Assembly: GCA_016783505.1 (NCBI GenBank)
Contig: JADHWK010000007.1
Span: forward strand, 1 to 64,000
Direction of reading: 5' to 3'
Source of the DNA: Candidatus Zhuqueibacterota bacterium
GTDB taxonomy: Bacteria > BS750m-G25
Length of the DNA: 64,000 bases
The translations under genes were made by a program, and so were the position numbers. The notes under the pieces were generated by a model that made no database searches, was not told where the DNA came from, and saw only the letters and a list, made by a program, of their open reading frames with translations. Below, piece by piece: positions 14,911 through 57,354 of the stretch. Within the stretch, counting starts at the first letter, position 1. Every line of letters starts with the position of its first letter.

Positions 14911-15250
14911 AAAATATCGAATATCGAACAACAAATTTCGAATGTTGTTGAAAATTCCAAATCACAATTTCCAAATCACAAACAAATCCTATCCCGAATA
15001 TTCGGGAACCAAATGTTCAAACCCAACCACGTTTTGGTCGTTCATACGGATGATCCGTTCTTCAGACCCGTCTGGGTAGGAGGCTACGCTCCCCGTTTGG
15101 GTCATTAAAATTTTGATCATTTGATATTATTTGCCTGCCCGGTCCGCCGTGCCCGGCTAGGGTAGAAGACTACGCTCCCAGGGGAATTTGGTGCTTCGGT
15201 CAGGCGCCCGACTGATGGAATTTGGAATTTATCCCGAACCTTCGGGATGG
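14911..15250 (+). repeat. Heptamer-repeat long inverted repeat with nested palindromes
   Basis: AAATTCC/AAATCAC/AATTTCC/AAATCAC left arm and GGAATTT/GGTGCTT/GGAATTT right arm, interrupted by ATCCCGAAnnTTCGGGA and TCGGTCAGGCGCCCGACTGA. Confidence 0.75.
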
Positions 15251-15319
15251 AGCAATTATTTTGTAGCTAATTCTTAGAATTTCCGAGACGTTTAAATATC
15301 ATTAATATGGACTCCGCCC

Positions 15320-16588
15320 ATGCTGGATCTGCACTTCATACGGAACAACCTGGAATTAGTTCGAGCGGGAATTCGAAATAAAGGGGAAAAGGACGAACTG
15401 GATCGTCTGCTGGCCCTGGATGACGAACGGAAGAATCTTTTAAGCGAGGTGGAAACCCTGAGGCATCGCCGTAATGTCGTTTCCAAACAAATCGGGGAGC
15501 TGCAAAAACAAAGACAGAATGCCGACCATTTGATTGCAGAGATGAGGATAGTATCCCAAAAGGTCAAGGATTTCGACCAAAAGTTGAGGGGGGTGGAGGA
15601 AAATCTGGAAGCGCTTATGCTCACCATTCCTAACGTTCCCCATCCCTCAACCCCGGTGGGGGATGGACCCCAGGGTAACAGCGAGGTGAGGCGCTGGGGA
15701 GAACCGAATGAGTTTGATTTCCCCGTCCTGGATCACCTGAAACTGGGGGAACGACTGGACATTCTGGACTTCAAACGGGCTTCCAAAATAGTGGGGTCGG
15801 GTTTTCCCCTTTATAAAGGATTGGGTGCCCAACTGGAGCGGGCCCTGCTGAACTTTATGCTGGACCTTCATATCCAAAAGCACGGCTATCGGGAGATCCT
15901 TCCCCCCTTTCTGGCCAACCGGCGAACGATGGTGGGCACCGGTCAACTGCCGAAGCTAGAACATGACATGTATCATGTAGAAGGGGAGGACTACTTTTTA
16001 ATTCCCACCGCCGAGGTGCCCCTAACCAACCTTCATCAGGACGAGGTTTTAAGCGGGGATGACCTTCCCTTAAACTACGTGGCCTATTCCGCCTGTTTCC
16101 GTAGAGAAGCGGGCTCCTGGGGAAAGGATACCCGGGGGTTTCTGCGGGTACATCAGTTTAACAAGGTGGAATTGGTCAAGATCGTCAAGCCGGAGGATTC
16201 CTGCGATGCCCTGGAAACCCTTGTAAGGCAGGCAGAGACGGTCTGTCAGGAGTTGGAAATTCCCTATCGGGTGGTGGAGCTGTGCACCGCAGATTTGGGT
16301 TTTGCCGCTACCAAGTGTTACGACATTGAGGTGTGGTCGCCGGCTGAAGGGAGATGGCTGGAGGCTTCCTCCTGCAGCAACTTCGAGGATTTCCAGGCCC
16401 GGCGGGCCAACATCCATTTCCGGAGGGGGCCGGGGGCAAAGCTGGAATATGTTCACACCCTGAACGGATCGGCACTGGCCACCTCCCGGCTGATGGTGGC
16501 CCTGCTGGAAAACTACCAGACCGACGAGGGGACAGTGATGGTGCCCCGGGTGCTGAAGAAGTATATAGGGGTGGGAGTGATAAAATAA
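15320..16588 (+). CDS. serS: Seryl-tRNA synthetase
   Basis: MLD, LIPTAEVP, FRREAG, RVHQF.KVE, SSCSN..DFQARR, HTLNGS.LA. Confidence 0.98.
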   Translation: MLDLHFIRNNLELVRAGIRNKGEKDELDRLLALDDERKNLLSEVETLRHRRNVVSKQIGELQKQRQNADHLIAEMRIVSQKVKDFDQKLRGVEENLEALMLTIPNVPHPSTPVGDGPQGNSEVRRWGEPNEFDFPVLDHLKLGERLDILDFKRASKIVGSGFPLYKGLGAQLERALLNFMLDLHIQKHGYREILPPFLANRRTMVGTGQLPKLEHDMYHVEGEDYFLIPTAEVPLTNLHQDEVLSGDDLPLNYVAYSACFRREAGSWGKDTRGFLRVHQFNKVELVKIVKPEDSCDALETLVRQAETVCQELEIPYRVVELCTADLGFAATKCYDIEVWSPAEGRWLEASSCSNFEDFQARRANIHFRRGPGAKLEYVHTLNGSALATSRLMVALLENYQTDEGTVMVPRVLKKYIGVGVIK

Positions 16589-16636
16589 ATCATAACGTTA
16601 TATGAAATTTACATCTTGCTAAGAAAGGGAAGTTAG

Positions 16637-17575
16637 ATGATTCCTTTTTCACAGAGGCACAGGGAAGCAATAGATAATAAGAAATTGACTGTATTTATAT
16701 CTAAAAGAGTTAAGCAAAAAATAGTTTATTGTATGCAAAACTATAATATACATTATGAATTGGAACCAGAGGGTTCATTCAATCCTATAGAATGTTCAAT
16801 ATTTTATGACGATTTGAAACGAAGCCTTATTGAAAATTATGGGGTAGCCTCTCTTAAAGTCTATGTAGACGATGTATTTCAGGAGACAGAAGATGTTAAA
16901 CAATTTATTCTTGGTACTAAACACGAGTATGTTCTTGATGCGATTGAACTATATATTACTCTTATTAGTGAACCAGATAAAGCATTAGATTTCCAAAAAG
17001 AGTGTAATCAAATATTCAAATCAGAAAATTCTCCCCTTAGAATTCTTGATGGTTTCATAATTAAATTAGATTCCGATTTTTTGGAAAGTGAAATACTAAA
17101 CAAAGCATTTGAACTCCTTGAAAACAATTATTTTGAAAAGGCATGTCGGGATTTTCTCAATGCTCGAAATAAATTCACTGCTGGAGATTATTCCGGGACA
17201 ATTATGGAGGCAAATAATGCGATTGAAAGTACTCTAAAGAAAGTGCTTTATAAGGATAGAGGCGAACAAGGAAATTTGAAAAAATGGTTAATGAAATCAG
17301 GTATTATTCCAGATTATTTTCAAGGATTTTGTGATCATTTTAAGGGTTTGCTGCAGGCTGCTTTTACAATAGCAAATGAATCATCACGACATGGTAAAAA
17401 GGAAATACCTGATAAAAAAAATGAAGTCGATCGTGCAGTTGCTTCATTCTTCTTACATCTGACAGGTTCATTGATTGTTTTTATTATGGAAAGGTATCAA
17501 GAAAAATTACCAGAGCCAGAGATGGAAAGGCATAAAGAAAATTTACCGGAGCCAGAGGAAGATTTGCCTTTTTGA
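16637..17575 (+). CDS. AT-rich AbiJ-N/Abi_C (HEPN-like) protein, candidate anti-phage gene
   Basis: FSQR N-terminus, VLDAIE, CNQIF, ANNAIESTLK, N..S.RHG helical C-domain; much more AT-rich than serS and trkA. Confidence 0.55.
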   Translation: MIPFSQRHREAIDNKKLTVFISKRVKQKIVYCMQNYNIHYELEPEGSFNPIECSIFYDDLKRSLIENYGVASLKVYVDDVFQETEDVKQFILGTKHEYVLDAIELYITLISEPDKALDFQKECNQIFKSENSPLRILDGFIIKLDSDFLESEILNKAFELLENNYFEKACRDFLNARNKFTAGDYSGTIMEANNAIESTLKKVLYKDRGEQGNLKKWLMKSGIIPDYFQGFCDHFKGLLQAAFTIANESSRHGKKEIPDKKNEVDRAVASFFLHLTGSLIVFIMERYQEKLPEPEMERHKENLPEPEEDLPF

Positions 17576-23259: not shown

Positions 23260-23525
23260 AGCAAATCAGTAAGAAGAAAATCAGATTATCAGTTTATCAG
23301 ATTTTATCCTGTCCCCCTGGCCGTAGCCCGGCCACGGGCAGGCAAGATCGTTTCCCCCTGGCCGGGCAGGCAAGACCCTTCGGGCCGAATGTTCTGATCA
23401 ACTGATCAGTCCGGCGCCTGACGGATATTCCTCCAACTGACCCACCTGCCAAGGTTTAGCGGGCAGGTATCCTGATCACTTGATATACTTATTTCCATCA
23501 TTTCACCATTCCATTGTTCCAGTTG
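23260..23525. repeat. Nested intergenic palindromes/short repeats inside the hydrogenase operon
   Basis: ATCAG.. repeats versus ..CTGAT repeats, CCTG...GGGCAGGCAAG twice, TCAGTCCGGCGCCTGACGGA at 23406-23425. Confidence 0.65.
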
Positions 23526-42240: not shown

Positions 42241-42298
42241 ATTCCCTCCCCCTCAATGGGGGAGGGTTTCGGTCAGGCGCCCGACTGAAGGGAGGGGA
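42241..42298. repeat. CCCTCCCC...GGGGAGGG hairpin element interrupted by the 20-nt palindrome
   Basis: ATTCCCTCCCCCTC..GGGGGAGGGTT[TCGGTCAGGCGCCCGACTGA]AGGGAGGGG. Confidence 0.75.
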
Positions 42299-42391
42299 AC
42301 TAATAAGATTATCGAAATGATAGGATAGAACGGGATTGACTGAATTATACAATTTATCAATAATCAATTTCAAAGTGAAAGGAGGTAAGAA

Positions 42392-43615
42392 ATGAGTAAA
42401 CAGTCGCTTGAAAGAGGTGTGGGGAAAAAGGTAGCCCTGAAAGGGATGATAAAGAGGCTGCATGAGGGGGAGAGTCCCGAGAAGATCAAAGAGGAATTTA
42501 AAGAATTGATAAAAGATACCACGCCCACTGAAATATCCCAGATTGAGGAAGAGCTTATTAAAGAGGGCATGCCAAGAGAAGAGATACACAGGCTCTGTGA
42601 TGTTCACCTCGCTGTATTTAAAGAGTCGGTTGAAAAGGAGAAGACTTTAGCCCCGCCTGGACACCCTATCCATATTCTTATGGAAGAGCACAAAATCCTT
42701 CTCCAATTTGCTGATGAATTGAAAAATATTACAGCGGACATTAAGGGGGCAGGAGGTTTTGATGCTGTTGGTGAACAGATGAATCACATAAAGCACATCG
42801 CCGAGCATCTTAAGGAATCGGAGAGCCACTATGTACGGGAGGAAAACGTGCTTTTCCCTTATCTTGAGAAACACGGGATCACCCAACCCCCGGCCATGAT
42901 GTGGATGGAACACGACAAGATCAGGGGGATAAAGAAGGAAATCTACAAGCTGGTTGATGCCCACAAGGACATGGGTTTTCAAGATTTTGCAGAACAACTG
43001 GGGGAAATGGCAATATCCTTGGCTGATATGCTGTCAAATCATTTTTTTAAGGAAAATAACATTCTCTTTCCAACCGCTTTAAAGGTTATATCGGAAACTG
43101 AATGGAAGGATGTAAGACATCAATTTGACGAACTCGGCTATTGCTGTTTCACCCCCGAGCAGGCCAAGGTTGCGGTTGAGAAGGCAGAGGCACCTACTTC
43201 AGAACCGGTGACAGAGGGTGTCGTTTCTTTTGAAACCGGTACCCTGTCAAAAGTGGAGATCGAAGCCGTACTTAACACTTTGCCCGTAGATATTTCCTTT
43301 GTGGATAAAGAAGACACGGTTCGTTATTTCAGCCAGACCAAAGAGAGGATCTTCCCCAGAGCAAAGGCGGTGATCGGCCGAAAGGTTCAGCAGTGTCATC
43401 CCCAAAAGAGCATCCATGTCGTCAATCAAATTCTTGACGATTTCAAGCATGGCCGCCGGGAGGTTGCTGGATTCTGGCTGCAATTAAAGGGGCGGTTCAT
43501 TCACATTCGCTACTTTCCGGTTCGTGATAAAAACGGCCAATATCTTGGATGTTTGGAGGTAACTCAGGACATCACCGATATAAGAAAGCTTGAAGGCGAG
43601 AAAAGATTATTATGA
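42392..43615 (+). CDS. DUF438 / hemerythrin / PAS-domain protein
   Basis: LCDVH, GHP...L..EH, HY.REE..LFP, EHD, KEN.ILFP, CHP.KS PAS domain. Confidence 0.88.
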   Translation: MSKQSLERGVGKKVALKGMIKRLHEGESPEKIKEEFKELIKDTTPTEISQIEEELIKEGMPREEIHRLCDVHLAVFKESVEKEKTLAPPGHPIHILMEEHKILLQFADELKNITADIKGAGGFDAVGEQMNHIKHIAEHLKESESHYVREENVLFPYLEKHGITQPPAMMWMEHDKIRGIKKEIYKLVDAHKDMGFQDFAEQLGEMAISLADMLSNHFFKENNILFPTALKVISETEWKDVRHQFDELGYCCFTPEQAKVAVEKAEAPTSEPVTEGVVSFETGTLSKVEIEAVLNTLPVDISFVDKEDTVRYFSQTKERIFPRAKAVIGRKVQQCHPQKSIHVVNQILDDFKHGRREVAGFWLQLKGRFIHIRYFPVRDKNGQYLGCLEVTQDITDIRKLEGEKRLL

Positions 43616-43683
43616 TGCAATGTTAATTTGTTTGTTATCTATCAAAACCGGTGAAGAACCTTTTTAAAGACTAACCCGGAGGG

Positions 43684-44997
43684 ATGCTGATGAGTAAGGC
43701 AAAACTAACTCTCGTTTTACTATCCGCATTGGTACTTACGATATTAATCGTGGTACTTTTGGTTAGCATTTTTGAACACAAGCAGGAGGCTAAGCTGACA
43801 TACTTCAAGGTGGTCGAGTTAGAGGATGGCGAGCCAGACCCCGCCGTGTGGGGCCAGAACTTCCCAAGACACTACGATGGATACACCAAGACGATGCGCA
43901 CATCAGAGCTTATGAAGTACAGCTTGTATGGTCGTTACGGAGGATCCGAAGCGTTCTCCAGGCTGGATAGATATTCCGAATATCGGCGGCTCTTCGACGG
44001 ATATTCCTTCTCGGTTGAGTATGGTGAAGATCGGGGGCATGTGCGGGCTTTAGAGGATATGCTGGCCACCGCCCGGCTGGGCGATAAGAAACCAGGCACC
44101 TGCATGACCTGTAAAAGCAGTCAAGTCCCCTCAATGATGCAGAAGTTGGGAATTGACGGGTTCTACGCCACACCGGTTAAGGAATTGATGGACCGGTTTA
44201 ACCCCAAACACCCGATTGCCTGTGCGGATTGTCATGATGCCAAAACCATGGCTTTGCATATTTCACGCCCTGCCTTCAAAGAGGCGATGGCTCAGCGAGG
44301 AATTGACTTAGCCCAGGCTACACGCCAGGAAATGAGAACCTATGTCTGTGCCCAGTGTCATGTGGAGTATTTCTTCAGAGGGAAGGACAATTACCTGGTT
44401 TTTCCCTGGGCCAAAGGTTTGAAGCTGGAGGATCTTGAAACTTACTATGATGGGATCAATTTCAGGGAATGGGAACACGGGGAAACGAAGGCACCCCTGG
44501 TCAAAATCAATCATCCGGAGTATGAGCTTTGGTCTTCTGGAATCCATGCCCGTTCCGGGGTTGCCTGCGCCGACTGTCATATGCCCTACGAGCGGGAAGG
44601 AGCTGTCAAGATCTCCAGTCACTGGGTTCGTACGCCATTGGCGAACCTGACGAATGCCTGTGGGACCTGTCATCGCCTGCCGGAAGAGGAATTGCGGGTA
44701 CGGATACTGGAAGCGCAAGATCGTACTTACAGCCTGATGAAGCGGGCAGAGGAGGCCATCCTGGATGCCCAGGGTGCCATTCGTACGGCGATGGAGAGGG
44801 GTGCCGCGGATCAGGCCCTCCAGGGGGCACGAAGACTGCATCGCAGAGCCTTTATGCGGTGGGATTCTATCAGTGCCGAGAACAGCATGGGCTTTCACAG
44901 TCCTCAGGAGGCAGTACGGATCTTGGGCGATGCCATTGATTATGGCCGTCAGGCCGAACTGGAAGCGTATAAGGCCATGGAGGGCCCGGGGCAATGA
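43684..44997 (+). CDS. nrfA: Ammonia-forming cytochrome c nitrite reductase catalytic subunit
   Basis: CMTCK plus four CxxCH motifs, RGH, CHVEY, ENSMGFH. Confidence 0.93.
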   Translation: MLMSKAKLTLVLLSALVLTILIVVLLVSIFEHKQEAKLTYFKVVELEDGEPDPAVWGQNFPRHYDGYTKTMRTSELMKYSLYGRYGGSEAFSRLDRYSEYRRLFDGYSFSVEYGEDRGHVRALEDMLATARLGDKKPGTCMTCKSSQVPSMMQKLGIDGFYATPVKELMDRFNPKHPIACADCHDAKTMALHISRPAFKEAMAQRGIDLAQATRQEMRTYVCAQCHVEYFFRGKDNYLVFPWAKGLKLEDLETYYDGINFREWEHGETKAPLVKINHPEYELWSSGIHARSGVACADCHMPYEREGAVKISSHWVRTPLANLTNACGTCHRLPEEELRVRILEAQDRTYSLMKRAEEAILDAQGAIRTAMERGAADQALQGARRLHRRAFMRWDSISAENSMGFHSPQEAVRILGDAIDYGRQAELEAYKAMEGPGQ

Positions 44998-45452
44998 TGG
45001 TGAAGGGCGCCAAGAAAACCCCGAAGGTGGCTTTGTTCCTTGGCATCGTAGTCGGTATGCTCGTGGGCCTGGGCGGCTACACCTTCTGGTATGGACGCGG
45101 TTACTCTTATTTTTCAAATGACCCGGCGGCCTGCGTGAACTGCCATGTGATGTGTGACAGCTTCAACTCCTGGGGCGTTTCCAGTCACCGTGGCGTAACC
45201 TGCAACGATTGTCATATTCCCCACAGTCCTGTTTTGAAGTACGCTGCAAAATTAGAAAATGGAATCCATCATTCCATAGCCTTCACCTTTGAAGATGTTC
45301 AGGTAATCCGAATCACCCCGAGGAATCTTCAGACTCTTCAGCAGAATTGTATCCGCTGTCATGAGCCTATGGTAAGTCTGATCCTCCAAGGGGAACAGGG
45401 GCTGGCTATTTCCTGCACCCGGTGCCACCAAGGCGCCGGACATGTGTTCTGA
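44994..45452 (+). CDS. nrfH: Tetraheme quinol dehydrogenase subunit
   Basis: N-terminal TM, CVNCHVM and three further CxxCH motifs. Confidence 0.93.
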   Translation: MMVKGAKKTPKVALFLGIVVGMLVGLGGYTFWYGRGYSYFSNDPAACVNCHVMCDSFNSWGVSSHRGVTCNDCHIPHSPVLKYAAKLENGIHHSIAFTFEDVQVIRITPRNLQTLQQNCIRCHEPMVSLILQGEQGLAISCTRCHQGAGHVF

Positions 45453-45489
45453 AAAAGTCACCCAAAAGACAAAAGATTAGGAAGACATC

Positions 45490-46425
45490 ATGTCCAAAGT
45501 TGCTATCATAGGGGTAGGTGATGTGGGGGCTACGTTAGCCTATACCCTGCAGCTATCCGGCCTGGCAACGGAGATTGTGTTGGTTGATTTAGACAAAGAG
45601 AGGGCAGAGGGACATTCGCTTGATATGAATCATGGCCTTTTCTTTATTCCTCCGGTGAGAATATACGCCGGTGATTATCCCGACTGCAAAGGGGCAAAAG
45701 TCATCATCATCACCGCAGGTGCCCGGCAAAAGCCGGGTGAAACCCGACTGGAACTGGTTCAGCGAAATGCGGGAATATGTAAATCCATCGTTAATCAAAT
45801 AACCCCTTACCTTGAGGAAAACATACTACTGGTCACCACCAATCCCGTGGACGTGATGACCTTGGTGGTGCTCAAAAGTTCGGGGCTACCCTGGGGACAG
45901 GTTTTGGGATCAGGGACTGTTTTGGATTCCGCCCGTTTCCGATATGCGCTCAGCCAGAGGTATAACGTAGATGCTAGAAACGTTCACGCCTACGTGATCG
46001 GTGAGCACGGCGACAGCGAGGTACTTCTATGGAGCTCGGTGAATATCTCCGGAATCCCGCTGGAGTCCTTCTGGAAAGGATCTAGAATAAAATACACACC
46101 GACCCCCCCCAGCCAGATTGAAGAAACAGTAAGAAAATCCGCCTATCACATCATCGAGGCCAAGGGATTTACCAACTATGGGGTCAGTCTGGCCATGTTG
46201 AGAATATTGGGGGCCATTCTCCGGGATGAGCACTCAGTTCTGACGGTCTCGACCTTCCTGAATGGGGGGTATGGACTTTACGATCTCTGTCTCAGTGTTC
46301 CCTGTATGGTCAGCGCCGATGGAATTGAACGGATAATAGAAACCCCCCTTTTGGCAGAAGAAAGTGCTGCCCTCCAGAAGTCGGCTGGAGTGCTAAAGTC
46401 TGTCATCAAAAGTCTGGGCTATTGA
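45490..46425 (+). CDS. ldh: L-lactate dehydrogenase
   Basis: G.GDVG, AGARQKPGETRL (Gln at specificity site), NPVD, LDSARFR, GEHGD. Confidence 0.92.
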   Translation: MSKVAIIGVGDVGATLAYTLQLSGLATEIVLVDLDKERAEGHSLDMNHGLFFIPPVRIYAGDYPDCKGAKVIIITAGARQKPGETRLELVQRNAGICKSIVNQITPYLEENILLVTTNPVDVMTLVVLKSSGLPWGQVLGSGTVLDSARFRYALSQRYNVDARNVHAYVIGEHGDSEVLLWSSVNISGIPLESFWKGSRIKYTPTPPSQIEETVRKSAYHIIEAKGFTNYGVSLAMLRILGAILRDEHSVLTVSTFLNGGYGLYDLCLSVPCMVSADGIERIIETPLLAEESAALQKSAGVLKSVIKSLGY

Positions 46426-46609
46426 CTTAGCATATTCCCTCAAAAAATAATTTGACAGAGAATAATTGATAGTGGGGAAATAAGGGGGGATTTCAAAGGG
46501 GGACTTGAGTGGGGGGTAATAGTAAGACATCAAAGGGGAAAATGAAGATTTTTCGATGAAGTTTCCTTTCCTCTGGTGATAGAGGCGAAGGCTGAGGAGA
46601 GCATTTTAA

Positions 46610-46830
46610 GGTGAAACCCTCATCCCGAAGGTTCGGGACTGACCGAGGGGTCAGGACAAGTTCAGGGCTTCGGTGAGACACCTTTCGGTCAGGCGCCCGG
46701 GTCTGTTGCAGAACTACCGCATAGGAATAAATTCCTATGCTAATCCAAATAAAGTATGTTGAAACATACTGTAATCAGTCCCGAAGTTTCGGGGCTTTCT
46801 TTGAAATAGCGTGATAATTTATTATCACGC
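46610..46830. repeat. Cluster of hairpins including a four-hairpin unit
   Basis: GCATAGGAAT/ATTCCTATGC, AGTATGTT/AACATACT, AGTCCCGAA/TTCGGGGCT, GCGTGATAAT/ATTATCACGC (46719-46830). Confidence 0.75.
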
Positions 46831-46908
46831 AAATAGGAAACCAGCGATTTCAGGGTTGTGCCACAGGCCCGCCCGACCGACGCCCTAGAGAATTTTGGTG
46901 TAGATATT

Positions 46909-49047
46909 ATGAAACAGAGGGTATTTTCGGAGGAAAAATTTATCCATATCGCTGTTCTGCTCTTGTCTTGCGTAGCGCTATCTTTGGGTCAGCCATCAAA
47001 GGAGGATGTAAATCGTGATACCGTTGCTCATATTAGACCATTTAAATTCGGGTGGATTACCGATACACATGTGGGTGCCGGATTCACTGAGGGAGGATTG
47101 CAAGGGGTTATCAGTGACATAAATGGAATGAGCGAAGAACTTGACTTTATTATTAACACCGGTGACCTCACCGAAAAGGGACTAAACGCCGAACTAACCC
47201 AATATAAAAATATTATTAGCAACTGCCACATTCCAATATGGAATATTCCCGGAAACCATGATACCAAATGGACGGAATCGGGACTGGAAAAATATAAACA
47301 GTTTTTTGGACCCGTTCATTTCTCCTTTCACCACAATGGATTTCAATTTATCGGCATTAACTCCGGTATTCCATTAAGAGGGGGTGGTGGATACTTTGAT
47401 CCCGCAGAGATTGTCTGGCTGGAAAATGAGCTGGGGAGCATGGGTTCCCCCGATACGCCGGTTATCATAGCATGGCATCATCCTGGCGACTTCGGTTCCA
47501 TTTCTAATTACTGGAAAATACTCGACCTTCTTAAGGACTATAATACTGCCCTGATTATGGTTGGTCACGGACATCATAATGCACAATACGATTTTGAAGG
47601 TATTGCTGGTGCTATGGGGCTTGATACCTATGGCGAGATCTCAGGGTTTAATATAGTGAGTGTCACCCCAGATGAAATAATCATCAGCACCCACCTTACC
47701 AATGATGAAACTGGTGATCCCTGGTACATCATACCGATTACAGGTCCTTCCCAAACGAAGATTTATTTCCCCAATCTGGGGGAAAATGCCCCTGTTTCCG
47801 GAACTAAAACCTTTGAGATTCAACTCAATCAACCGGCAACAAATGGCATCTGGGATATTACGTATGACGATAGGGGGGCCCAACCCCTTTCAGGAAGGGG
47901 AACATCGTGGAATTTTACCCTTAACACCGCAAATCTCGAGAATGGCTATCACACCTTGACAGTAAGTTTCACCGAACCGAGCGGTCGCAGAGTTTCCCGC
48001 ACCCGGGGATTCTACGTGGAGAATGGCTATCCCCGTGCAATTTGGCGATTCCATGCCGGAGCCGGGATTATTACCGCTCCTGCATACGATGACAATCACG
48101 CCTATGTGGGTACCAGCGATGGCAGAATTATTGGTCTCAATCTAAGTGATGGTAGCCTGGCATGGGAACCGGTGCAGACCCAAGGAACTGTATTCTCTTC
48201 ACCTGCTGTTTCTGATAGTATTATATATATAGGTTCTTCGGATGGTTATCTTTATGCGGTTAATGCTAGTTCCGGTTCTATCCAGTGGCGTTACGAAACA
48301 GGTAGCGCTATTCTAACTCCCCCTATAATTGCTGACTCCCTCATTTATTTTGGAAGCGGCAATAATTTTTACGCCCTTAATCTTAATACACATGAACAGG
48401 CCTGGGGACGATCTATTAATGGAATGATGGAGTGCAAGCCGGTTCTGGCTGGGGATTACGTTATTTTTACTGCATGGGACAGATCAGTCCATGCTTTAAA
48501 CCGGTTTACTGGGGCATCCCAATGGAACTGGAGCCGGACCCCCAGTTTTTACTATTCACCGGGTGCGTGTTGGCCTGTTGTAGGACTCCACCGGGTATTT
48601 GTAACTGATCCTCAACGTTATACAAGTGCCATTAATCTAGAAAATGGAGAAACTATTTGGTCGCATAACTCCCCTGAGGCTTGGGAATCTGTAGGCATTT
48701 CATCGGATAAAACTCAGGTGTATATCCGATCCCTTGATGGGAATCTATACGCTTTTTCTGCCGCAGAACCCTCTATGCAACAAATTTGGTCGGCTCCTGT
48801 CGGTTACGGATGGGATTCTATTCCCTCCATGCCTGTTGAGAAAAACGGCAGTGTTTTTACCGGAAGCAAGAAGGGGTTCGTAACGTCTGTGGACTCAAAG
48901 GATGGGCAGGTTTCCTGGAGGTATTGGACAGCCCACGCTTATGTGGCAACGGTAACCCCGCTGGATGAGGATCGAGTGCTGGTAACTGCACTGGATGGAA
49001 CTGTAATCCTCATATCTGGTGACCCGGCATTAGGAGTTGAAGAATAA
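46909..49047 (+). CDS. Secreted calcineurin-like metallophosphoesterase fused to a PQQ/BamB-like beta-propeller
   Basis: TDTH, TGDL, PGNHD, GHGH; repeated GS.DG.LYA.N..G...W blades. Confidence 0.88.
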   Translation: MKQRVFSEEKFIHIAVLLLSCVALSLGQPSKEDVNRDTVAHIRPFKFGWITDTHVGAGFTEGGLQGVISDINGMSEELDFIINTGDLTEKGLNAELTQYKNIISNCHIPIWNIPGNHDTKWTESGLEKYKQFFGPVHFSFHHNGFQFIGINSGIPLRGGGGYFDPAEIVWLENELGSMGSPDTPVIIAWHHPGDFGSISNYWKILDLLKDYNTALIMVGHGHHNAQYDFEGIAGAMGLDTYGEISGFNIVSVTPDEIIISTHLTNDETGDPWYIIPITGPSQTKIYFPNLGENAPVSGTKTFEIQLNQPATNGIWDITYDDRGAQPLSGRGTSWNFTLNTANLENGYHTLTVSFTEPSGRRVSRTRGFYVENGYPRAIWRFHAGAGIITAPAYDDNHAYVGTSDGRIIGLNLSDGSLAWEPVQTQGTVFSSPAVSDSIIYIGSSDGYLYAVNASSGSIQWRYETGSAILTPPIIADSLIYFGSGNNFYALNLNTHEQAWGRSINGMMECKPVLAGDYVIFTAWDRSVHALNRFTGASQWNWSRTPSFYYSPGACWPVVGLHRVFVTDPQRYTSAINLENGETIWSHNSPEAWESVGISSDKTQVYIRSLDGNLYAFSAAEPSMQQIWSAPVGYGWDSIPSMPVEKNGSVFTGSKKGFVTSVDSKDGQVSWRYWTAHAYVATVTPLDEDRVLVTALDGTVILISGDPALGVEE

Positions 49048-49061
49048 AGAAGGGGTCTACT

Positions 49062-50030
49062 ATGCCTTTGACCCTGGAGGAATACGCCGCATCTCTGGAA
49101 GACAGGATCAGACCACGTCTGCCCCATATTACCCCTCCAGAGGATATTAAAGCCAAGCTAACCGCCTTACCCAATATGAAAGCTGTGTTGTGGGATGTGT
49201 ACGGAACGTTAATGGCGGTAGATACCGGGGATTTGGGGGAAACCCTGAAGCTGAAGCACAAGTTAATTCAGGCGTTTGAATTAACAATCCAAGAGTTTAA
49301 CCTTAAGGACACCCTTCTAAAGCTTACCGAGAATCCGGCGGAATATCTTTTAAACCGGTATGTCCGGTTGATAGAGGAGGATCATCAGCGGGAGAGGGAA
49401 AGGGGAGTCCAGTTCCCCGAGGTGAAGATCGAAGCCATCTGGCAAGGGATTATTCGGGAGTTACAGACGGCGGGATATACCTATGATGGGGCGGCCTACG
49501 GGCCCCTGCCGGATTTTTCCATAAAGATGGCCTACTTCTTCGATTACGTATTCCATGGTAAACGGTTTTACCCCGGAGTAAAAGAAACCCTGATCTCTCT
49601 CAAAAACCGTGGCCATAAGCAGGGGTTGATCTCCAACGCCCAGTTTTATACCCCCATTCAACTCGATCGCCTGCTTGCTGCCGGGACCTCCGATAAAGAG
49701 GCTGGCTTCCGTTTTCTATTCGACCGAGAATTAATCTGTTTTTCCTACCTGTTGGGGGTAGCCAAACCGAACCCCCTCATCTTTGAGAAGGCCGCCCTCA
49801 CCCTCAGGAAATACAATATTGACCCAGTGGAGACGGCTTATGTGGGCAATGATGTGTTCAATGACCTTTTGCCCGCCCATAAGCAGGGGTTTAAAACGGT
49901 CCTCTTCGCCGGGGATGGAACGACCCTGAAGTTACGGAAGGACCATCCCTCGTGCCGGGATTTTATCCCGGATGCGATCATCAACAAAATTCCCCAAATT
50001 AAAGAGATTTTGGTTTTTTCCGGACTTTAG
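49062..50030 (+). CDS. HAD-family phosphatase (possibly MggB-like)
   Basis: WDVYGTL, SNAQFYT, KP, VGND..ND, LFAGD. Confidence 0.8.
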   Translation: MPLTLEEYAASLEDRIRPRLPHITPPEDIKAKLTALPNMKAVLWDVYGTLMAVDTGDLGETLKLKHKLIQAFELTIQEFNLKDTLLKLTENPAEYLLNRYVRLIEEDHQRERERGVQFPEVKIEAIWQGIIRELQTAGYTYDGAAYGPLPDFSIKMAYFFDYVFHGKRFYPGVKETLISLKNRGHKQGLISNAQFYTPIQLDRLLAAGTSDKEAGFRFLFDRELICFSYLLGVAKPNPLIFEKAALTLRKYNIDPVETAYVGNDVFNDLLPAHKQGFKTVLFAGDGTTLKLRKDHPSCRDFIPDAIINKIPQIKEILVFSGL

Positions 50031-50050
50031 TGGATAGAAATCAATTCCTG

Positions 50051-50070
50051 TCAGTCAGGCGCCTGACTGA
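50051..50070. repeat. Perfect 20-bp palindrome, reference copy of a dispersed family
   Basis: TCAGTCAGGCGCCTGACTGA; variants at 15196, 23406, 42269, 46685 (partial), 57251. Confidence 0.9.
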
Positions 50071-50192
50071 TCCTATTTTTCCTTTAGTAATTCCAATGAA
50101 TTGGAATGGGCAATCCAAATTTAGAAGATTTCTCTTGATTTTTAGTAAATTTTATGTGATATTTAGTGATAGAAAAAGGGGGACACAAAGCG

Positions 50193-51020
50193 TTGAAAAC
50201 AATTTATAGCATTGTCAACGTTCTGCTATTTTGTGGAACAACCCTTGCTGATATCATTCATGTTCCTGGCGATCAACTCACGATTCAAGCCGGGATTGAT
50301 TCCGCTGCTGTAGGTGATACCGTGTTGGTGGATACGGGGCGGTATGTGGAACACATCAACTTTAATGGTAATGATATAGTTATCGGGTCACTGTTTCTGA
50401 TTACTGGCGATACTTCCTACATTACTCAGACGGTGATTGATGGAGATAGTAGTGGAAGTGTGGTGACGTTTGAGAATGGTGAAGATTCCACAGCGGTGTT
50501 AAGTGGTTTTACCATTACCAATGGACAAGGTGGAGGCTCTTGGCCACATTACACTGCTGGTGGAATTACATGTAAATATTCTTCCAGCCCAAGTTTGGTG
50601 AATGTAACGGTGAGTGGGAATACGACATTTTGAGAAATGTCTGGAAGTGGAACTGGCGGTGAGATTATCTGCTAGGCTAATTCCAATCCCACATTGACCA
50701 ATGTGATCATTATCAGGAATTATGCTAATTACGGTGGCGGGATTTTATGTTGGAATAACTCCGGTCTGAGTTTGGTGAATACCATTCTCTGGAACGATTC
50801 GCCGCAGGAAATTTGTTTCAGCGAACAGGCTGCTTCGAATTCTATTACCATTGCCTATTCTGATGTGCAGGGCGGTGAAGCAGGAGTTGTGACTAACAAC
50901 AACGGCACCGTGAACTGGCTGGAAGGGAATATTGATGCCGATCCCCTGTTTGCAGATCCTGATAATGGCGATTTTCACCTTCAAGAAGGCTCCCCTTGCA
51001 TTTTAGATAAAAGGAGATAA
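50193..51020 (+). pseudogene. Secreted right-handed beta-helix (pectin-lyase fold) protein, disrupted
   Basis: IHVPGD..TIQ.GI, GFTITNG, GGGI.C repeats; in-frame TGA 50631-50633 and TAG 50673-50675; cut off after GSPCI. Confidence 0.85.
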
Positions 51021-51024
51021 TAAT

Positions 51025-51591
51025 ATGTCATCTGATAAGCTTCAAGCAATCATTTCTGAATATCAAATGTTGAGAGAAGAGATCCAGCGGAGATCTACAG
51101 ATCAGATGCATTGTGTTGTAGCTTCTGTTCTCTCAATCGGAGTTTTAATATCTCTCATTGCACAAAATCCCACTAAATATTCACCCGTTCTTATTGTAAT
51201 TCCATGGATTTTAGCGGTTTTTGGAATAATTTGGTTGGATTGTAACTGCAGTATTTTCTTGCTAGGACAATATATAAGAGATGAAATTGAAGGGAAAAAA
51301 TTACCTGCATTGTTGGAATCTTCTGAGATTAACTGGATAGGATGGCAACATTATATTTATAAAAAACGTGAAAAGTGGAAATTTCCATCATATATCGTAT
51401 TTATTTTGCCATTCTTCTATTTTGTTATACCTTCCATCGTTTGTGTAATTGCTTATATAATTCTACGCTTATATGGTATTATTACGATGCCAAAAACAAT
51501 TGAATGGTGCTTTTTAGCAATTGGCATAATCTTTATTATAATATTATTATATAGTTGGTACAAATCATATGAAACCACAAAGGGAAGATAA
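51025..51591 (+). CDS. AT-rich 4-TM hypothetical membrane protein, cassette-like
   Basis: SD AGGAG, EYQMLREEI, two TM pairs; followed by attC-like sequence. Confidence 0.75.
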   Translation: MSSDKLQAIISEYQMLREEIQRRSTDQMHCVVASVLSIGVLISLIAQNPTKYSPVLIVIPWILAVFGIIWLDCNCSIFLLGQYIRDEIEGKKLPALLESSEINWIGWQHYIYKKREKWKFPSYIVFILPFFYFVIPSIVCVIAYIILRLYGIITMPKTIEWCFLAIGIIFIIILLYSWYKSYETTKGR

Positions 51592-51654
51592 AATAAAAAA
51601 GGTGATATAGAACAAATAGAGAGTTATGTCAAATGAGAGCAGCACGGCACAGGC

Positions 51655-51732
51655 GCATGACACAGCATAAAAGGTTCGTGCCTGATGGCAGTCACCTAAA
51701 TTTTTGCTTCGTAAAAACTTCTTTTATGCTGG
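51655..51732 (+). other. attC-like site truncated by the IS
   Basis: GCATGAC (degenerate R''), 11-bp IR CAGCATAAAAG/CTTTTATGCTG, inner TTTTTGCTTCGTAAAAA hairpin; R' missing where the IS end begins. Confidence 0.5.
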
Positions 51733-51759
51733 ATCTATAAAAAGGTAAAAGTCAAGAGA

Positions 51760-52065
51760 AAAAAATCCCTCTACGCCCTGCCCGTAGGGTCATGGAATTA
51801 GTGTCATCTCGAAATTAGTCGGGATAGGGCTCTGAAACAAAGCAAAGATTTCCGGCTCTTTGATAATCTTTTCAGGGGGAATGCTGCGAACAGATTGGGT
51901 TTTGCCAAGTCGACTGACCGTATATGTTACGAAGGGGTGTCATTCCCGCTTGCGCAGGATGACCATCAATCTATTCAACCTGCCGGAACGGTCTTGGGAA
52001 CTAAACGGTTATCGTATGTATACGGTCGGCCCGAACCCGATAATAAACGTTAGAACGTGCCTCTT
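51760..52065 (-). ncRNA. Candidate bridge/seek RNA of the IS1111 element
   Basis: ~300-nt structured non-coding right end (GACCGTATA/TATACGGTC stem, terminal hairpin plus T run); position matches IS1111 guide RNAs. Confidence 0.6.
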
Positions 52066-53122
52066 TCAGCCGTTATTCGCGCTGTTGTTCGTGATCCAGG
52101 CCGGCTTGATTTTAGTTCCCCGATACAGTTCATTGTTTCGCAGCATAAAGTACACGGCCTTAGCTAGTTTTCTGGCAGTGGCCACAATAGCCTTGCCGTG
52201 TCCTTTAGTGGCCTTTTTATACTCGTAATAGGCCTTCAGTCCCGGATCTTTTCGAATGGCAACGAGGGCAGCCTCAATAAATGCCGTTCTCAGATACTTA
52301 TTGGACTGTTTATTGATTTTTCCTTGATAGAGCTTATCTGCTGATCCCCGGGTGTTGACAGCCAATCCGGCGTATCGGAGAAGGCTCAATTCGTGGGAAT
52401 CGATGGACCTTTACAATCTCGGCGATGATTGTCGAAGCATGTACTACTCCAACCCCGTCAATCGAGTTCAGAAGCGGATAGAAGGGGTGGTTAAGGATAC
52501 GGTTTTTGATCATCTCATAGAGTTCGTCGATGAAAATGGAGAAGGTCTCGATGAGGTTAAGCTGCTTGGCGATGATCTTTCTGATGGGCTCGGGGAAATT
52601 CTGAGCTTCGATCCAGCGGATACCCTTGGAACCGAACACATATTTGTAGAGTCCTTGAAAATTGTACTTATCCAAGTAGGCACGGATGGTGTTTTTGAGG
52701 CTGGTGCGTAGGGTCACTAGCCGATATCGCTGGCGGTTGAGTTCCCGGAGGTGCCGGTACCAAATGTCAGGCACGTAACAGGTTGCAACCATTCCGGCTC
52801 TTGAAAGTTGAGCCAGCATAGCCGAGTCGTACTTGTCATTCTTAGCATGAACCGTTGCAATGGCTCGATTTAGAAAGGGGTTAGCCATTGTGAAGGGGAT
52901 TCTCTTGAGATTGAGATAATCAGCGAGCCAGAAGTAGTTTCGAGTAGCCTCGAAGGTCACATGGATGGGTTCAGCGAAGGAATCGAATAAGACATCCAGT
53001 TCCTCGGGCCGATTGGGGATCTGATGGGTTCCCAGTTTTTTGCCGTCAGAATCGACTACAGAAAGAACAGAGTTCTTTTTGTGCAGATCCAGACCGATTT
53101 GATATTGAATTGAAGAATCCAT
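52066..53122 (-). pseudogene. IS110 DEDD transposase/recombinase with a frameshift near 52395
   Basis: IGLDLHK, FEAT, KND..DS; C-domain YAGL......S, LRTAF.EAA, AIVATARKL in a different frame. Confidence 0.9.
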
Positions 53123-53249
53123 GTTGACCTCCTTTTGAGACTTGAGTTTATAACTAAGATACAAAATATTCTCTTTCGAGACTACCTTTTTATAATATAA
53201 ACTTTTTACGACATTCATAAATAGAAAACCCAAGGGGGGTGAGAGGATC

Positions 53250-55448
53250 ATGAAAAGGTTATTAATCGTTTCAAACAGGTTGCCAATTACTGTCGAAAAA
53301 AGGAAGGGTAATTTACTTTTTCGGCAGAGCACAGGAGGCCTGGCTACGGGACTAAGGTCATTCTATAGATCATATGACAGCATATGGATAGGATGGTCTG
53401 GAATTACATTAGATAAAATTAGTACCGAAGAAAAGAAGAGTATTGAAACAAAACTGATGTCTGAGTTTAACTGTTACCCGATTTTTCTCTCGCAAAATAA
53501 CATTGAAAAGCACTACCATGGTTTTTGCAACAAAACTATCTGGCCCCTTTTCCACAGTTTCACCCAATATGCAGTTTACGAAAAGGGTTTATGGGAGTCT
53601 TACAGGCAGGCAAATAAACTTTTTTTTGATGCAATTATAGAAAAATCTGAGCCAGATGATATTATCTGGATACATGATTATCATTTAATGCTTCTTCCCA
53701 AACTTTTAAGAGAAAAATTATCGAATGCTTCAATAGGTTTTTTCCTCCATATACCCTTCCCAACCTTTGAAATATTTCGCCTACTTCCATGGCGTAAGGA
53801 AATTTTAGAAGGACTCTTAGGAGCAGATGTTATAGGTTTTCACACCTATGATTATGCACGACATTTCCTCAGTAGTGTGCAGCGTTTGTTAGGATACGAA
53901 TACAGTTGGGGTCAAATTACTGCCTATGATCGTATAATAAATACAGATGTATTTCCAATGGGAATAGACTATCAACTATTTTCAAAAGCTGCTCAGGATC
54001 CAGGAGTACAAAAAGAGGTGACGAAGTTTCGTAAAAAACTTAGCGATCGTAAAATAATTTTATCAATAGACCGCCTAGACTATACAAAAGGGATACCCCA
54101 ACGCTTAGAGGTTTTCGACAACTTTTTGAAAAAAAACCCAGAGTATAAGGAGAAGGTGAGTCTTATTTTGGTTGCAGTTCCTTCACGCACACAGGTAGAA
54201 CATTATAAGTTACTGAAAAAACAGGTAGATGAACTTATCGGCAAGATTAATGGAGAACATGGAACGATTGGGTGGGTTCCCGTCCTGTATCTCTACCGCT
54301 CTCTACCCTTTTCCAGCCTTGCTGCTTTGTACAGTATTGCTGATATTGCCATTGTCACCCCTCTAAGAGATGGTATGAATCTCATAGCAAAAGAATATAT
54401 CGCAACTAAGGCAGATGGAAAAGGGGTCTTGATATTAAGTGAAATGGCTGGAGCATCAAATGAGTTGGGTGAGGCAATCATAGTAAACCCTAACAACAGC
54501 AATGAGATGCTAGAGGCATTAGAAAAAGCCCTGATGATGCCGGAAAAGAAACAGATAGAACACAATAAGCCAATGCAAGAACGCCTCAAACGGTATAGTG
54601 TGGTGAGATGGGCAGAAGAGTTTATAGATAGATTGCTATACACCAAAAAACTTCAGAGTGAGATGTATACGAAGATGCTAACTTATGAAGTCAGATGGAA
54701 ATTGGTTAGCGATTATCGTAAAAGCAAGAGGCGGCTTTTACTATTTGATTATGATGGAACTCTTGTCCCTTTTTTTGGTAAACCTGAAGAGGCAAAACCC
54801 AGCAATGAGATTTTAAAATTACTCAAAAAACTCGCTGAAGATCAAAAAAATGAAGTGGTTCTCATAAGTGGACGTGACAAAGATACTTTAGAATCTTGGT
54901 TTGGCAACTTAAATCTGAGTCTTGTGGCTGAATATGGTGTGTGGCTAAAAGAATCTGTCCGTCCGCCAGGCGGGAAAGAGTGGGAATTAATAGAACCCCT
55001 GACTTCCGATTGGAAGGAAAAGATACGACCAATCCTTGAACTGCATGTAGATAGAACCCCTGGTTCTTTTATTGAAGAGAAAAATTTTTCCCTTGCCTGG
55101 CACTATCGAAAAGCCGATCTAGGATTAAGTTTAATGAGGGCAAGGGAGTTAATGGATAATCTCATAAATCTCACAGCCAATCTTAACCTTGAGGTTCTGG
55201 AGGGGAACAAAGTAATTGAAGTAAAGAATGCTGGTATAAACAAGAGCCGGGTTACGTTAAGATGGATTTCAAAGAAAAGTTGGGACTTTATCTTGGCGGT
55301 CGGTGACGATTGGACTGATGAAGATATTTTTGCTGTGTTACCGGATGAAGCTTATTCATTAAAAGTTGGTTTAACCCCTACGAAGGCAAAGTTCAATCTT
55401 AATTCAGTAATGGATGTAAGATTATTACTAAAAGATCTGGGGAGGTGA
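53250..55448 (+). CDS. otsAB: Bifunctional trehalose-6-phosphate synthase/phosphatase
   Basis: VSNRLP, GGLA, WIHDYHL, DRLDYTKG, DGMNL.AKE; HAD DYDGTL and GDD.TDE. Confidence 0.93.
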   Translation: MKRLLIVSNRLPITVEKRKGNLLFRQSTGGLATGLRSFYRSYDSIWIGWSGITLDKISTEEKKSIETKLMSEFNCYPIFLSQNNIEKHYHGFCNKTIWPLFHSFTQYAVYEKGLWESYRQANKLFFDAIIEKSEPDDIIWIHDYHLMLLPKLLREKLSNASIGFFLHIPFPTFEIFRLLPWRKEILEGLLGADVIGFHTYDYARHFLSSVQRLLGYEYSWGQITAYDRIINTDVFPMGIDYQLFSKAAQDPGVQKEVTKFRKKLSDRKIILSIDRLDYTKGIPQRLEVFDNFLKKNPEYKEKVSLILVAVPSRTQVEHYKLLKKQVDELIGKINGEHGTIGWVPVLYLYRSLPFSSLAALYSIADIAIVTPLRDGMNLIAKEYIATKADGKGVLILSEMAGASNELGEAIIVNPNNSNEMLEALEKALMMPEKKQIEHNKPMQERLKRYSVVRWAEEFIDRLLYTKKLQSEMYTKMLTYEVRWKLVSDYRKSKRRLLLFDYDGTLVPFFGKPEEAKPSNEILKLLKKLAEDQKNEVVLISGRDKDTLESWFGNLNLSLVAEYGVWLKESVRPPGGKEWELIEPLTSDWKEKIRPILELHVDRTPGSFIEEKNFSLAWHYRKADLGLSLMRARELMDNLINLTANLNLEVLEGNKVIEVKNAGINKSRVTLRWISKKSWDFILAVGDDWTDEDIFAVLPDEAYSLKVGLTPTKAKFNLNSVMDVRLLLKDLGR

Positions 55449-55452
55449 CAAA

Positions 55453-56661
55453 ATGCATAGTTTGGAAGATTATTATGAAATTGTAGGTGATAGGGTTATA
55501 TCTGAGATACACAAGAGGGCGAGAAGGCTTTTTGGAAAGCATATATTACACGTTAATTCTACATATCAGGGCGGCGGTGTTGCCGAAATGCTGGCATCCC
55601 TTGTGCCTCTCATGAATGACGTAGGGATTGACACCGGCTGGAGAATATTCCATGGAAACCCTGATTTTTTTACAATCACCAAAAAATTTCACAACGCACT
55701 TCAGGGCGATAAGATTAATTTGTCCGAGATAAAAAAACGCTTGTATTTCCTGGCCAATGAAGATTTTTCTGTCTATACACACTTAGATCACGATTATATA
55801 ATCATCCACGATCCACAACCCCTACCTTTAATAAAATATTATAAGAAAGGTCAGCCATGGATTTGGCGGTGCCATGTAGATTTATCGCATCCCAATAAAG
55901 AACTATGGGAATTTCTTACAAGGTTCATTCTTAAGTATGACATGATTATTATTTCAAACGAAAAATATAAGAGAGAAGGCCTACCGGTAGAACAAAGGAT
56001 TATTTATCCTGTTATCGATCCTCTATCTCCTAAAAATATGGAAATATCCGACACAACGATTTCAAAATATCTTAAAAAGTTTGGTGTTCCTACAGATAAA
56101 CCGATCATAACTCAGATATCGAGATTTGATAAGTGGAAAGATCCGGTAGGTGTAACAGAAGCATTTAAAATTGTTAAGAAACATGTAGATTGTAGATTAG
56201 TATTATGTGGAAGTATGGCCACCGATGACCCAGAAGGCTACCAGATTTATGAGAAGGTAAAAAGAAAGGTTGAAAAATTTATTGCCAATAACGATGTAAT
56301 TCTTATAACTACCGAGAACAACATTCTTGTAAACGCTTTACAGCGCAGTTCTGCAGTAATAATACAAAAGTCTATAAGGGAGGGCTTCGGGCTTACGGTA
56401 ACTGAGGCGCTTTGGAAGGCAAGACCTGTCGTGGCTTCAAATGTAGGGGGGATTCCTCTTCAAATAAAGGATGGAGAAAATGGATTTTTGCTTGATCCTT
56501 ACAACACAAAAGGTTTTGCTCAGATGATTGTTCAAATATTGCAAAATCCCAGACTGGCAGAGAAGATGGGTAAAGAAGGTAAGGAAATTGTCAGGAAAGA
56601 ATTTCTCATAACAAGGCTTTTGTCAGACTATTTAGATTTATTTAATGATATGGAAAAATGA
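55453..56661 (+). CDS. treT: Trehalose glycosyltransferring synthase (GT4)
   Basis: NSTYQGGGVAE, HDPQP, WRCH.D, SRFDKWKD, EGFGLTVTEALWK. Confidence 0.88.
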   Translation: MHSLEDYYEIVGDRVISEIHKRARRLFGKHILHVNSTYQGGGVAEMLASLVPLMNDVGIDTGWRIFHGNPDFFTITKKFHNALQGDKINLSEIKKRLYFLANEDFSVYTHLDHDYIIIHDPQPLPLIKYYKKGQPWIWRCHVDLSHPNKELWEFLTRFILKYDMIIISNEKYKREGLPVEQRIIYPVIDPLSPKNMEISDTTISKYLKKFGVPTDKPIITQISRFDKWKDPVGVTEAFKIVKKHVDCRLVLCGSMATDDPEGYQIYEKVKRKVEKFIANNDVILITTENNILVNALQRSSAVIIQKSIREGFGLTVTEALWKARPVVASNVGGIPLQIKDGENGFLLDPYNTKGFAQMIVQILQNPRLAEKMGKEGKEIVRKEFLITRLLSDYLDLFNDMEK

Positions 56662-56666
56662 ACGAC

Positions 56667-56746
56667 GTATAACAGTGGATAAGAGAGGAATCAAAGATTT
56701 CTCTAAATTGTCTTCTCTAACCTCTTTTATTCACAACCCGTTATAT
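56667..56746 (+). other. attC-like integron cassette recombination site
   Basis: GTATAAC ... GTGGATAAGAGAGG / CCTCTTTTATTCAC ... GTTATAT, 80 bp, starting 6 nt after the treT stop. Confidence 0.65.
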
Positions 56747-57354
56747 GAAATTGCGGTTCTTTAAATGCTTTTCAAAGGTAGTGGGGTTAAATAAGTAGAA
56801 GAGGCAAGCAAGAAATTTATGATATTTTACTCCCACCTCTCTTCTACTGTTTATACCAGTGTAAAGGACAGCGGTGTCCTATTAACTATACGTTATCTTT
56901 ATGAGCCTCGACGTCGTCGTAGCACCGAATAGGCAATCTGGGAAGATATTTTACAAGAGTTCTCCAAAGGTGCAGATATAGATTTCGCATATCCTACACA
57001 ACGGTTCTATAATAATCGACTCGAGGTAAAGGCTGGGATTAGACCTTTCTCCGGGGAAGAGAATACAAAAACATCCGGAAATAAGCCAAAGTAGCTCACA
57101 ATATAACTGTTAAGACGTCAGTCTTTTATAAAATCCTAAGGATTAAATCCAACGGATTAAACTGAAAAAATGAGAGGCATTCAGTCATTTTGAAAATACA
57201 CCCACTACTAGTTTGTGCTACAGTAGATGAAAACAATGGATTTATGTTATTCGGTCAGGCGCCCGATTGATTTCGATATTCGAATTTCGGATTTACTTAT
57301 GATTACCACAAAAACCCTGAAAGAGGGGAAATTTTAACCTAATGTCCTGAGCCA

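Follow-up and report, generated by a model that had tools for sequence, protein, structure and literature searches.

A 20-nt palindrome-like sequence that recurs in the 64,000-nt stretch of DNA analyzed here (the window, on contig C27 of a Candidatus Zhuqueibacterota genome, G000, assembled to 2.51 Mb in 89 contigs with 46% G+C and about 60% completeness) is very probably a mobile insertion element, and one that is inserted exactly and without target duplication. We read it as a non-autonomous micro-transposon of the kind represented by repetitive extragenic palindromes (REPs) and small dispersed repeats (SDRs), which would be single-stranded when moved in trans by a Y1 enzyme, and put the probability of this reading at roughly 0.55. 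Mobility is well supported, in contrast to the enzyme, whose assignment to the Y1/RAYT type draws on analogy with known systems and is held tentatively, at slightly less than even odds. The unit can be written as TCxG TCyG GCGC Cx'GA Cy'GA, with variable positions 3, 7, 14 and 18.

A first-pass annotation of the window had described the element at five positions, two of them occupied by variants, and a search with its pattern recovered all five, amounting to 10 strand-matches against 0.01 expected from 100 shuffles (Table 1). As had also been claimed, the copies are intergenic, lying between long plus-strand open reading frames (ORFs) with the next start 84-122 nt beyond each of them, and deletion of the 20 nt restores the host repeat, yielding GGTGCT|TGGAATTT at 15196 and the continuous repeat given in Table 1 at 42269. 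A site that carries the element at C36:17680 is present in the window in empty form (C numbers denote contigs of G000 unless another genome is named). A two-mismatch look-alike, TCGGTTTGCCGCCGGACTGA, at window 57900-57919 falls inside the ORF 57355-59106 and is probably either a chance match or a very old copy.

The genome-wide count that the first-pass annotation had proposed comes to 115 copies in G000 that differ from TCNGTCNGGCGCCNGACNGA at no more than two positions, the four-N pattern being matched exactly by 51; the element is the third most abundant 14-mer family of this genome, and 96 of the 115 copies lie outside ORF calls that are themselves crude, in a genome with a coding share of 86%. 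When the 20 nt were removed in a script and the joined flanks matched against G000, 41 of the 115 copies had at least one gapless empty paralogue across the joint elsewhere in the genome. All 17 printed filled/empty alignments differ by exactly 20 nt and lack a duplicated flank, as the earlier annotation had observed for the window, and in three of them the base directly left of the element differs too. Single filled sites have up to 11 empty paralogues, which makes insertion the parsimonious direction; excision is probably exact too. Two further cases come from other genomes that carry the same 20-mer. In the Bacteroidales genome G041, a duplicate pair of about 330 bp on contig C157 holds three copies in one member and two in the other, the difference being an exact 20-nt gap. 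In G052 the single copy interrupts the 3'-terminal part of a P-type ATPase frame, and removing the copy extends the frame via MHCEGC by about 60 codons; the piece downstream of the element matches positions 12-62 of 62 of the Pfam HMA domain with E=0.005, below the cut-off because the piece is cut. The empty paralogues, the insertion of the element into its own copies (see below), the G041 pair and the split HMA domain of G052 bear out the proposal of a tiny non-autonomous element that enters other repeats.

These data also address the reading in which the 20-mer is a non-mobile motif selected by the host, such as a protein-binding site or a terminator, that arose by point mutation or gene conversion. 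Its intergenic placement and the narrow spacing of the five window copies ahead of the next start would agree with such a role. Genome-wide, the distance from the element to the next start in same-direction intergenic regions is 26-524 nt, with a median of about 131 nt, and the orientation relative to transcription is random at 31:35, with 10 additional symmetric copies. The fixed distance to promoters that an operator would show, named by the first-pass annotation as a refuting observation, is thus ruled out by this spread, even though the window copies alone span 84-122 nt. The sites differ by exact 20-nt indels rather than by substitutions, one copy lies within the coding frame of G052, and no Rfam family match was found in the window. 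We regard this reading as very improbable, and the indel data bring it close to refuted.

The history of individual insertions was followed in four public sequencing runs, whose reads and contigs were compared with window 40001-58000. In a strain of about 96% identity one contig (run X5) spans 50051 in its filled state and another reaches through 42269, so that these two insertions predate that strain split. Contigs of the runs tend to stop at element copies, among them, in other runs, the copy at 42269.

The sequence variation among the 115 copies indicates which base pairs matter. According to the first-pass annotation, most substitutions preserve G:T pairing within a palindromic hairpin; this claim is not sustained, since of the 115 copies only 15 have a Watson-Crick pair at 3:18 and only 15 at 7:14, with G:T found there in 43 and 31, respectively. 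Watson-Crick pairing is instead the rule at 3:14 (96 copies) and 7:18 (98 copies). Where 7:18 is A:T, pair 3:14 occurs as G:C (58 copies), C:G (16), A:T (8) and T:A (3), and one sub-family has changed 2:15 from C:G to T:A; a perfect-hairpin variant with a base other than A at position 3 was absent from the 115 copies, and in the Ignavibacteriaceae metagenome-assembled genome (MAG) G043 all seven copies among the matches listed are of the C:G type. Despite shared descent, the covariation needs at least three separate double changes. The covarying pairs are predicted to form two interleaved 4-bp helices, 1-4:13-16 and 5-8:17-20. The predicted fold of the strand TCAGTCyGGCGCCTGACy'GA as single-stranded DNA consists of a 4-nt 5' tail followed by the hairpin 5-8:17-20, at -4.2 kcal/mol and 85% of the ensemble, with a poor predicted fold for the opposite strand and -6.2 kcal/mol for the perfect palindrome. 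An H-type pseudoknot containing both helices at once was rejected by geometric reasoning, as two of its three connecting loops would have zero length. The earlier idea that a single-stranded hairpin matters is therefore half right: a simple 10-bp hairpin with G:T wobbles is not conserved, and the pairs that covary are 3:14 and 7:18.

A second line of evidence comes from the insertion sites, for which similar flanks in G000 were collapsed, leaving n=55. An A usually precedes the element and a T usually follows it, and on the strand reading TCAGTCyGG... the 5' flank follows C-N-N-A, with C(-4) in 36 of 55 and A(-1) in 36 of 55 sites, compared with 11 of 55 for the mirror position G(+4). This flank resembles the element's own 3' end (CNGA), and its strand asymmetry fits the single-strand logic of IS200/IS605- or RAYT-type enzymes. 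Other carriers show A(-1) in 20 of 36 and T(+1) in 20 of 36 sites. The element also enters itself: in ten nested cases the inner copy follows position 9 of the outer one, or position 11 for an inner copy read on the opposite strand, a rule that fits all nine orientable cases, although the orientations of inner and outer copy are separated by only one of them. Hairpin loops with a stem of at least 6 bp are mildly favored as targets, the excess being modest (11 of 109 sites against 174 of 5263 control sites). A site-specific recombinase that leaves no duplication, be it an IS110/IS1111-type DEDD enzyme or a tyrosine or serine recombinase, would account for the tendency of empty site, left junction and right junction alike to A|T, which would then be a tiny shared core. 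Relatives of IS110/IS1111 target REP-like palindromes. A 20-bp double-stranded circle is implausible as a donor, and the nested sites are G|C rather than A|T; we consider this reading unlikely. IS1397 and REP-targeting insertion sequences are cited in the reference list of PMC3116915.

The partial copy that the first-pass annotation had placed at 46685 is real and is the left part of a full element that has been split by a miniature inverted-repeat transposable element (MITE). The MITE family is about 150-240 bp long, and in each of its 29 copies with both ends in G000 element halves stand outside the MITE's own ends; the 6-nt direct repeat beside it, corresponding to element positions 10-15, is identical in 18 of 29 and has one mismatch in eight of 29. 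It occurs in both G:C and A:T variants of the element, and this, with its own inverted repeats and the direct repeat, makes it read as a separate unit that targets the element. The same constellation might instead suggest that the 20-mer is itself a minimal MITE, namely the two terminal inverted repeats of a DDE-type insertion sequence placed end to end and mobilized by cut-and-paste, with the unit of about 200 bp as its longer form: the sequence does resemble two 10-bp inverted repeats, and the halves accompany all 29 of the longer copies. Classical DDE MITEs combine inverted repeats with a target duplication, which is present in none of the 17 printed pairs, and the presence of a separate set of inverted repeats and of the direct repeat on the inner unit, in both variants, argues in the same direction. 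No 26-nt excision footprints of the MITE were found in G000, and positions 3 and 7 are exchanged between the two halves of the element, a difference that inverted repeats leave unexplained. This reading is, in our view, more doubtful still than that of a recombinase.

Table 1. Element copies and the inserted MITE in the window (pattern, the search pattern of the first-pass annotation; pairs x:x' and position numbers refer to the element unit)
Feature	Window position	Strand	Remarks
Element copy, main variant (x:x' = G:C), within GGAATTT heptamer run	15196..15215	+	Exact pattern match; empty paralogue C71:14081-14108
Element copy, C:G variant	23406..23425	-	Two mismatches to pattern; read on the + strand, the variable helix is 7:18; empty paralogues C3:61269-61234 and C85:63129-63164
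Element copy, main variant, within host repeat GGGAGGGTT|AGGGAGGGG	42269..42288	+	Exact pattern match; same host site also filled at C1:39310
Left part (positions 1-15) of split element copy	46685..46699	+	Partial copy of the first-pass annotation
MITE with terminal inverted repeats GGYCTGTKGCASAAC, 170 bp	46700..46869	+	Flanked by 6-nt direct repeat CGCCCG = element positions 10-15
Right part (positions 10-20) of split element copy	46870..46880	+	On the other side of the MITE
Element copy, perfect palindrome (A:T at both variable pairs)	50051..50070	.	Exact pattern match; empty paralogue C69:1320-1267
Element copy, main variant with one substitution (C17 to T)	57251..57270	+	One mismatch to pattern

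Three further observations concern the MITE and its surroundings. The listed GTG start of an ORF for a 729-aa BamB-like protein, at window 46858, falls inside the end of the MITE and element, and the true start is probably further downstream. Among metagenome relatives of the neighboring gene one near-identical contig, L109, was found; it shows no excision of the element and lacks 156 bp (window 46623-46778) between two TCCCGAAGNTTCGGG hairpin repeats, a loss that takes the left half of the MITE together with the left element part and could be due to recombination between the hairpins or to assembly collapse. At C1:39103-39329, the same host site as that of 42269, the 9-nt sequence TCGGTCAGG is followed by a MITE-bearing element and then by a full element, and the 9-nt sequence is present on both sides of this composite.

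The identical 20-mer is found in at least five other MAGs, which in a scan of one genome per species contributed to a total of at least 86 element loci. These are G041 (Bacteroidales, 46 copies), G042 (an unclassified 'bacterium', 13), G043 (Ignavibacteriaceae, 11), G044 (Bacteroidales, 9) and G045 (Neomarinimicrobiota, 6), whose SerS proteins are 44%, 58%, 55%, 43% and 55% identical to that of G000, respectively; distances were taken from SerS, rpoB being missing from the G000 assembly, and identities of 43-58% place the carriers very far apart. Single matches occur in Zixibacteria and others among the matches listed, and for Streptomyces and Gordonia the matches have the look of chance or of one conserved gene. 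In the class to which G042 belongs, for which the tallies cover 125 genomes including the unpublished G161 and G165 (both Y1-positive and without the element), the distribution is patchy, with four genomes carrying the element, three of them as a single copy. The motif was found in none of 40 comparison genomes, all of which are related to G000 only at the level of the domain, and viral contigs gave no match to the element. A cyanobacterial origin, which the heptamer repeats had suggested, was rejected because of this absence and because the carriers are MAGs of the FCB type.

As for the enzyme, five matches to PF01797 (Y1) were found in G000, on contigs C89, C32, C80, C5 and C22, in keeping with the earlier statement that the window holds no HUH/RAYT gene, and PF01797 genes are present in all six carriers. 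A second, more distant group of Y1-like proteins of about 180-200 aa is regularly accompanied by a hairpin of its own on both flanks. In G043 a 186-aa Y1-like gene of this group lies between inverted hairpins CCGTCAGGAA-N4-TTCCTGACGG, present in six copies, whose arms equal the element's left arm and the right arm of its other strand; in the other carriers searched, nothing matches the protein product at more than 35% identity. In G065 the sole copy of the element stands directly before the ribosome-binding site of a hairpin-flanked Y1 gene. Y1-like coding sequences lie within 300 nt of four of the 86 listed element loci, compared with fewer than one by chance according to a rough estimate that was not computed. 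G000 itself has Y1 (IS200/RAYT-like) genes with their own hairpin repeats on both sides at C89:1233-1676, C5:78804-79388 and C54:15213-15686, a REPtron-like layout.

In the mechanism that we propose, an HUH Y1 enzyme, of either the IS200/IS605 or the RAYT type, would act in trans and move the element in single-stranded form. The mobile strand, 5'-TCAG TCyG GCGC CTGA Cy'GA-3', would present a 4-nt 5' tag followed by a small hairpin, and the internal guide TCyG would pair with its terminal Cy'GA and thereby select this tetranucleotide as the site of cleavage on the right-hand side. The C-N-N-A in the 5' flank would mark the insertion point, and the palindromic GGCGCC center of a resident copy would provide a second, preferred target that gives rise to nested copies. 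The covariation of 3:14 and 7:18 suggests here the same logic as the pairing of guide tetranucleotides in IS608 and, probably, REPs. A bolder form of this idea, which we think possible but rather doubtful, is that the element is the smallest complete single-strand transposon substrate, with both end-recognition modules compressed into two interleaved guide/site pairs within 20 nt, and could hence be moved by the resident Y1 enzymes of many lineages; if true, it would explain how an identical 20-mer invaded different phyla and came to serve both itself and a dedicated MITE as a site of insertion.

Several findings weigh against a Y1-driven single-strand pathway. On the side of the substrate, each helix is only 4 bp long, the shuffle statistics for pair covariation overstate independence because the copies share descent, the C(-4) signal is clear in G042 (six of seven sites) and not in G041 (five of 17), and the nested target GGCG|CC does not fit C-N-N-A. 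One G041 module has the element in place of 12 nt rather than as a clean addition, no orthologous empty allele of the kind that the first-pass annotation had suggested seeking in relatives was seen in the four public runs over window 40001-58000, and neither a larger element bounded by the two halves nor outward-facing halves were found in G000. On the side of the enzyme, G000's three full PF01797 genes have no element within a distance of 3 kb, and none of 15 Y1 loci (three in G000 and 12 in the five other carriers) has the element or its halves at both flanks, so that a Y1 transposase gene flanked by the motif, another check that had been suggested, did not come to light; with G000 only 60% complete, this absence is weak evidence. 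Since Y1 genes occur in 106 of the 125 genomes of G042's class, finding them in every one of the six carriers is hardly informative. The Y1 proteins compared are at best 45-54% identical between carriers, no shared, recently transferred Y1 enzyme is visible, and where Y1-like sequence adjoins the element in G041, the element has been inserted into remnant modules derived from RAYTs. The earlier proposal of HUH/RAYT action in trans remains plausible, given the asymmetric flank, the guide-like covariation and the G043 hairpins; the failure to find an element-flanked Y1 gene at the 15 loci speaks against it.

In a further reading, self-annealing 20-mers from a nuclease or replication process would be captured by ligation into double-strand breaks during repair. 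Absence of target duplication, insertion in both orientations, a loose target, the one case with 12 nt replaced and the lack of a dedicated enzyme at the Y1 loci examined would all follow naturally. Insertion into resident copies always takes place at one phosphodiester, though, the flank preference is strand-asymmetric, blunt capture gives no reason for the covariation of 3:14 and 7:18, and the sequence is identical in very distant genomes; we judge repair capture improbable, if somewhat less so than the other alternatives considered above.

Among described systems, the nearest to the element are the 21-27-nt SDRs of Nostocaceae, notably the 21-nt SDR5, as they appear in passages of citing papers. 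SDR5 is likewise about 20 nt long, dispersed in high copy number and without a known enzyme, and SDRs are inserted as exact units of about 20 nt at a fixed point of another short repeat without duplication. Their nesting in heptamer repeats was reportedly described by Elhai et al. in 2008 (Genome Res 18:1484). The sequences, compared through those passages, are unrelated, and the hosts differ, heterocystous cyanobacteria in one case and uncultured MAGs of the FCB type (Bacteroidales, Ignavibacteriaceae, Neomarinimicrobiota, Zixibacteria) in the other. A passage in PMC13756078 calls SDR5 a 21-nucleotide sequence of unknown function, and according to one in PMC5861425 no SDR-like repeats occur outside Nostocaceae among HIP1-rich cyanobacteria; the element itself is the same 20-mer across very distant genomes.

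With REPs, their RAYT (TnpA-REP) genes in REPtrons, and REPINs the element shares the character of a short (20-40 nt) extragenic palindrome of high copy number with a 4-nt tag 5' of a hairpin. The REP tag is GTAG or CGTC (families listed in the part of PMC3733652 consulted), whereas the ends of the element are TCAG/TCxG and CTGA/Cx'GA; its stem comprises only 4-5 bp, it occurs as singletons and not as doublets, and no element-flanked Y1 gene was found at the loci searched. Exact filled/empty sites and self-nesting are, we assume, much clearer for the element than for classical REPs. A choice of the cleavage site by guide tetranucleotides has been proposed for REPs in a passage of PMC8266576, and REPs are treated in the excerpts consulted as non-autonomous, with a spread that is poorly understood. 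The IS200/IS605 elements (IS608, ISDra2) and the gene-less PATEs resemble the element in having no signature of inverted repeats and duplication and, if the flanks in G000 and G042 are typical, in entering 3' of a short flank motif on one strand, a motif that the element's 3' end resembles. Guide tetranucleotides that lie 5' of the IS608 palindrome select the sites of cleavage by complementarity (passages in PMC3201880 and PMC5934647), and the pairs 5-8:17-20 and 1-4:13-16 of the element, with their compensatory changes, may play a comparable guide role. IS200/IS605 elements carry two separate subterminal hairpins over hundreds of bases, whereas both pairs of the element are interleaved in 20 nt, and the motif in its flank, C-N-N-A, is a loose one that some carriers do not show. 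In the main texts of the searched literature the 20-mer and its 14-nt cores gave a single hit, one core occurring once in an unrelated paper on a Leishmania topoisomerase, and a keyword search for similar repeats in Bacteroidetes returned nothing relevant. The element is not a sequence member of any described family, its separation from SDRs being based on the passages of citing papers.

To our knowledge, how REPs and the cyanobacterial repeats of about 20 nt spread has been unsolved since their description. The element, one of the smallest mobile DNA elements seen, offers a handle on how tiny repeats move, being a clean system with exact filled and empty sites, compensatory variants, a polar target signature and the same sequence in distant genomes. 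These features combined lead to testable predictions for a Y1 enzyme acting on the 20-mer. A scarless 20-nt insertion unit would also be of interest for DNA-insertion tools, and knowledge of the element would help the assembly of MAGs because contigs break at its copies.

Other repeats and indels were noted in the same genome. In G000 the highest counts among 14-mer families belong to hairpins built as CCCGAA-NN-TTCGGG, the top variants reaching 55, 52, 27 and 26 copies; these hairpins have examples in the window at about 15236-15249 and 46625-46640 and are probably a separate REP family. Another family, with about 30-35 copies on several contigs, includes 14-mers such as GTAACTGCCGCTGA, CAGTTACGCCTATG and TCAATGATGCGTAA. 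Finally, the intergenic segment at window 42003-42114 (112 nt) is replaced by 22 other letters in contigs of runs X5, X6 and X7, and may be another small insertion.

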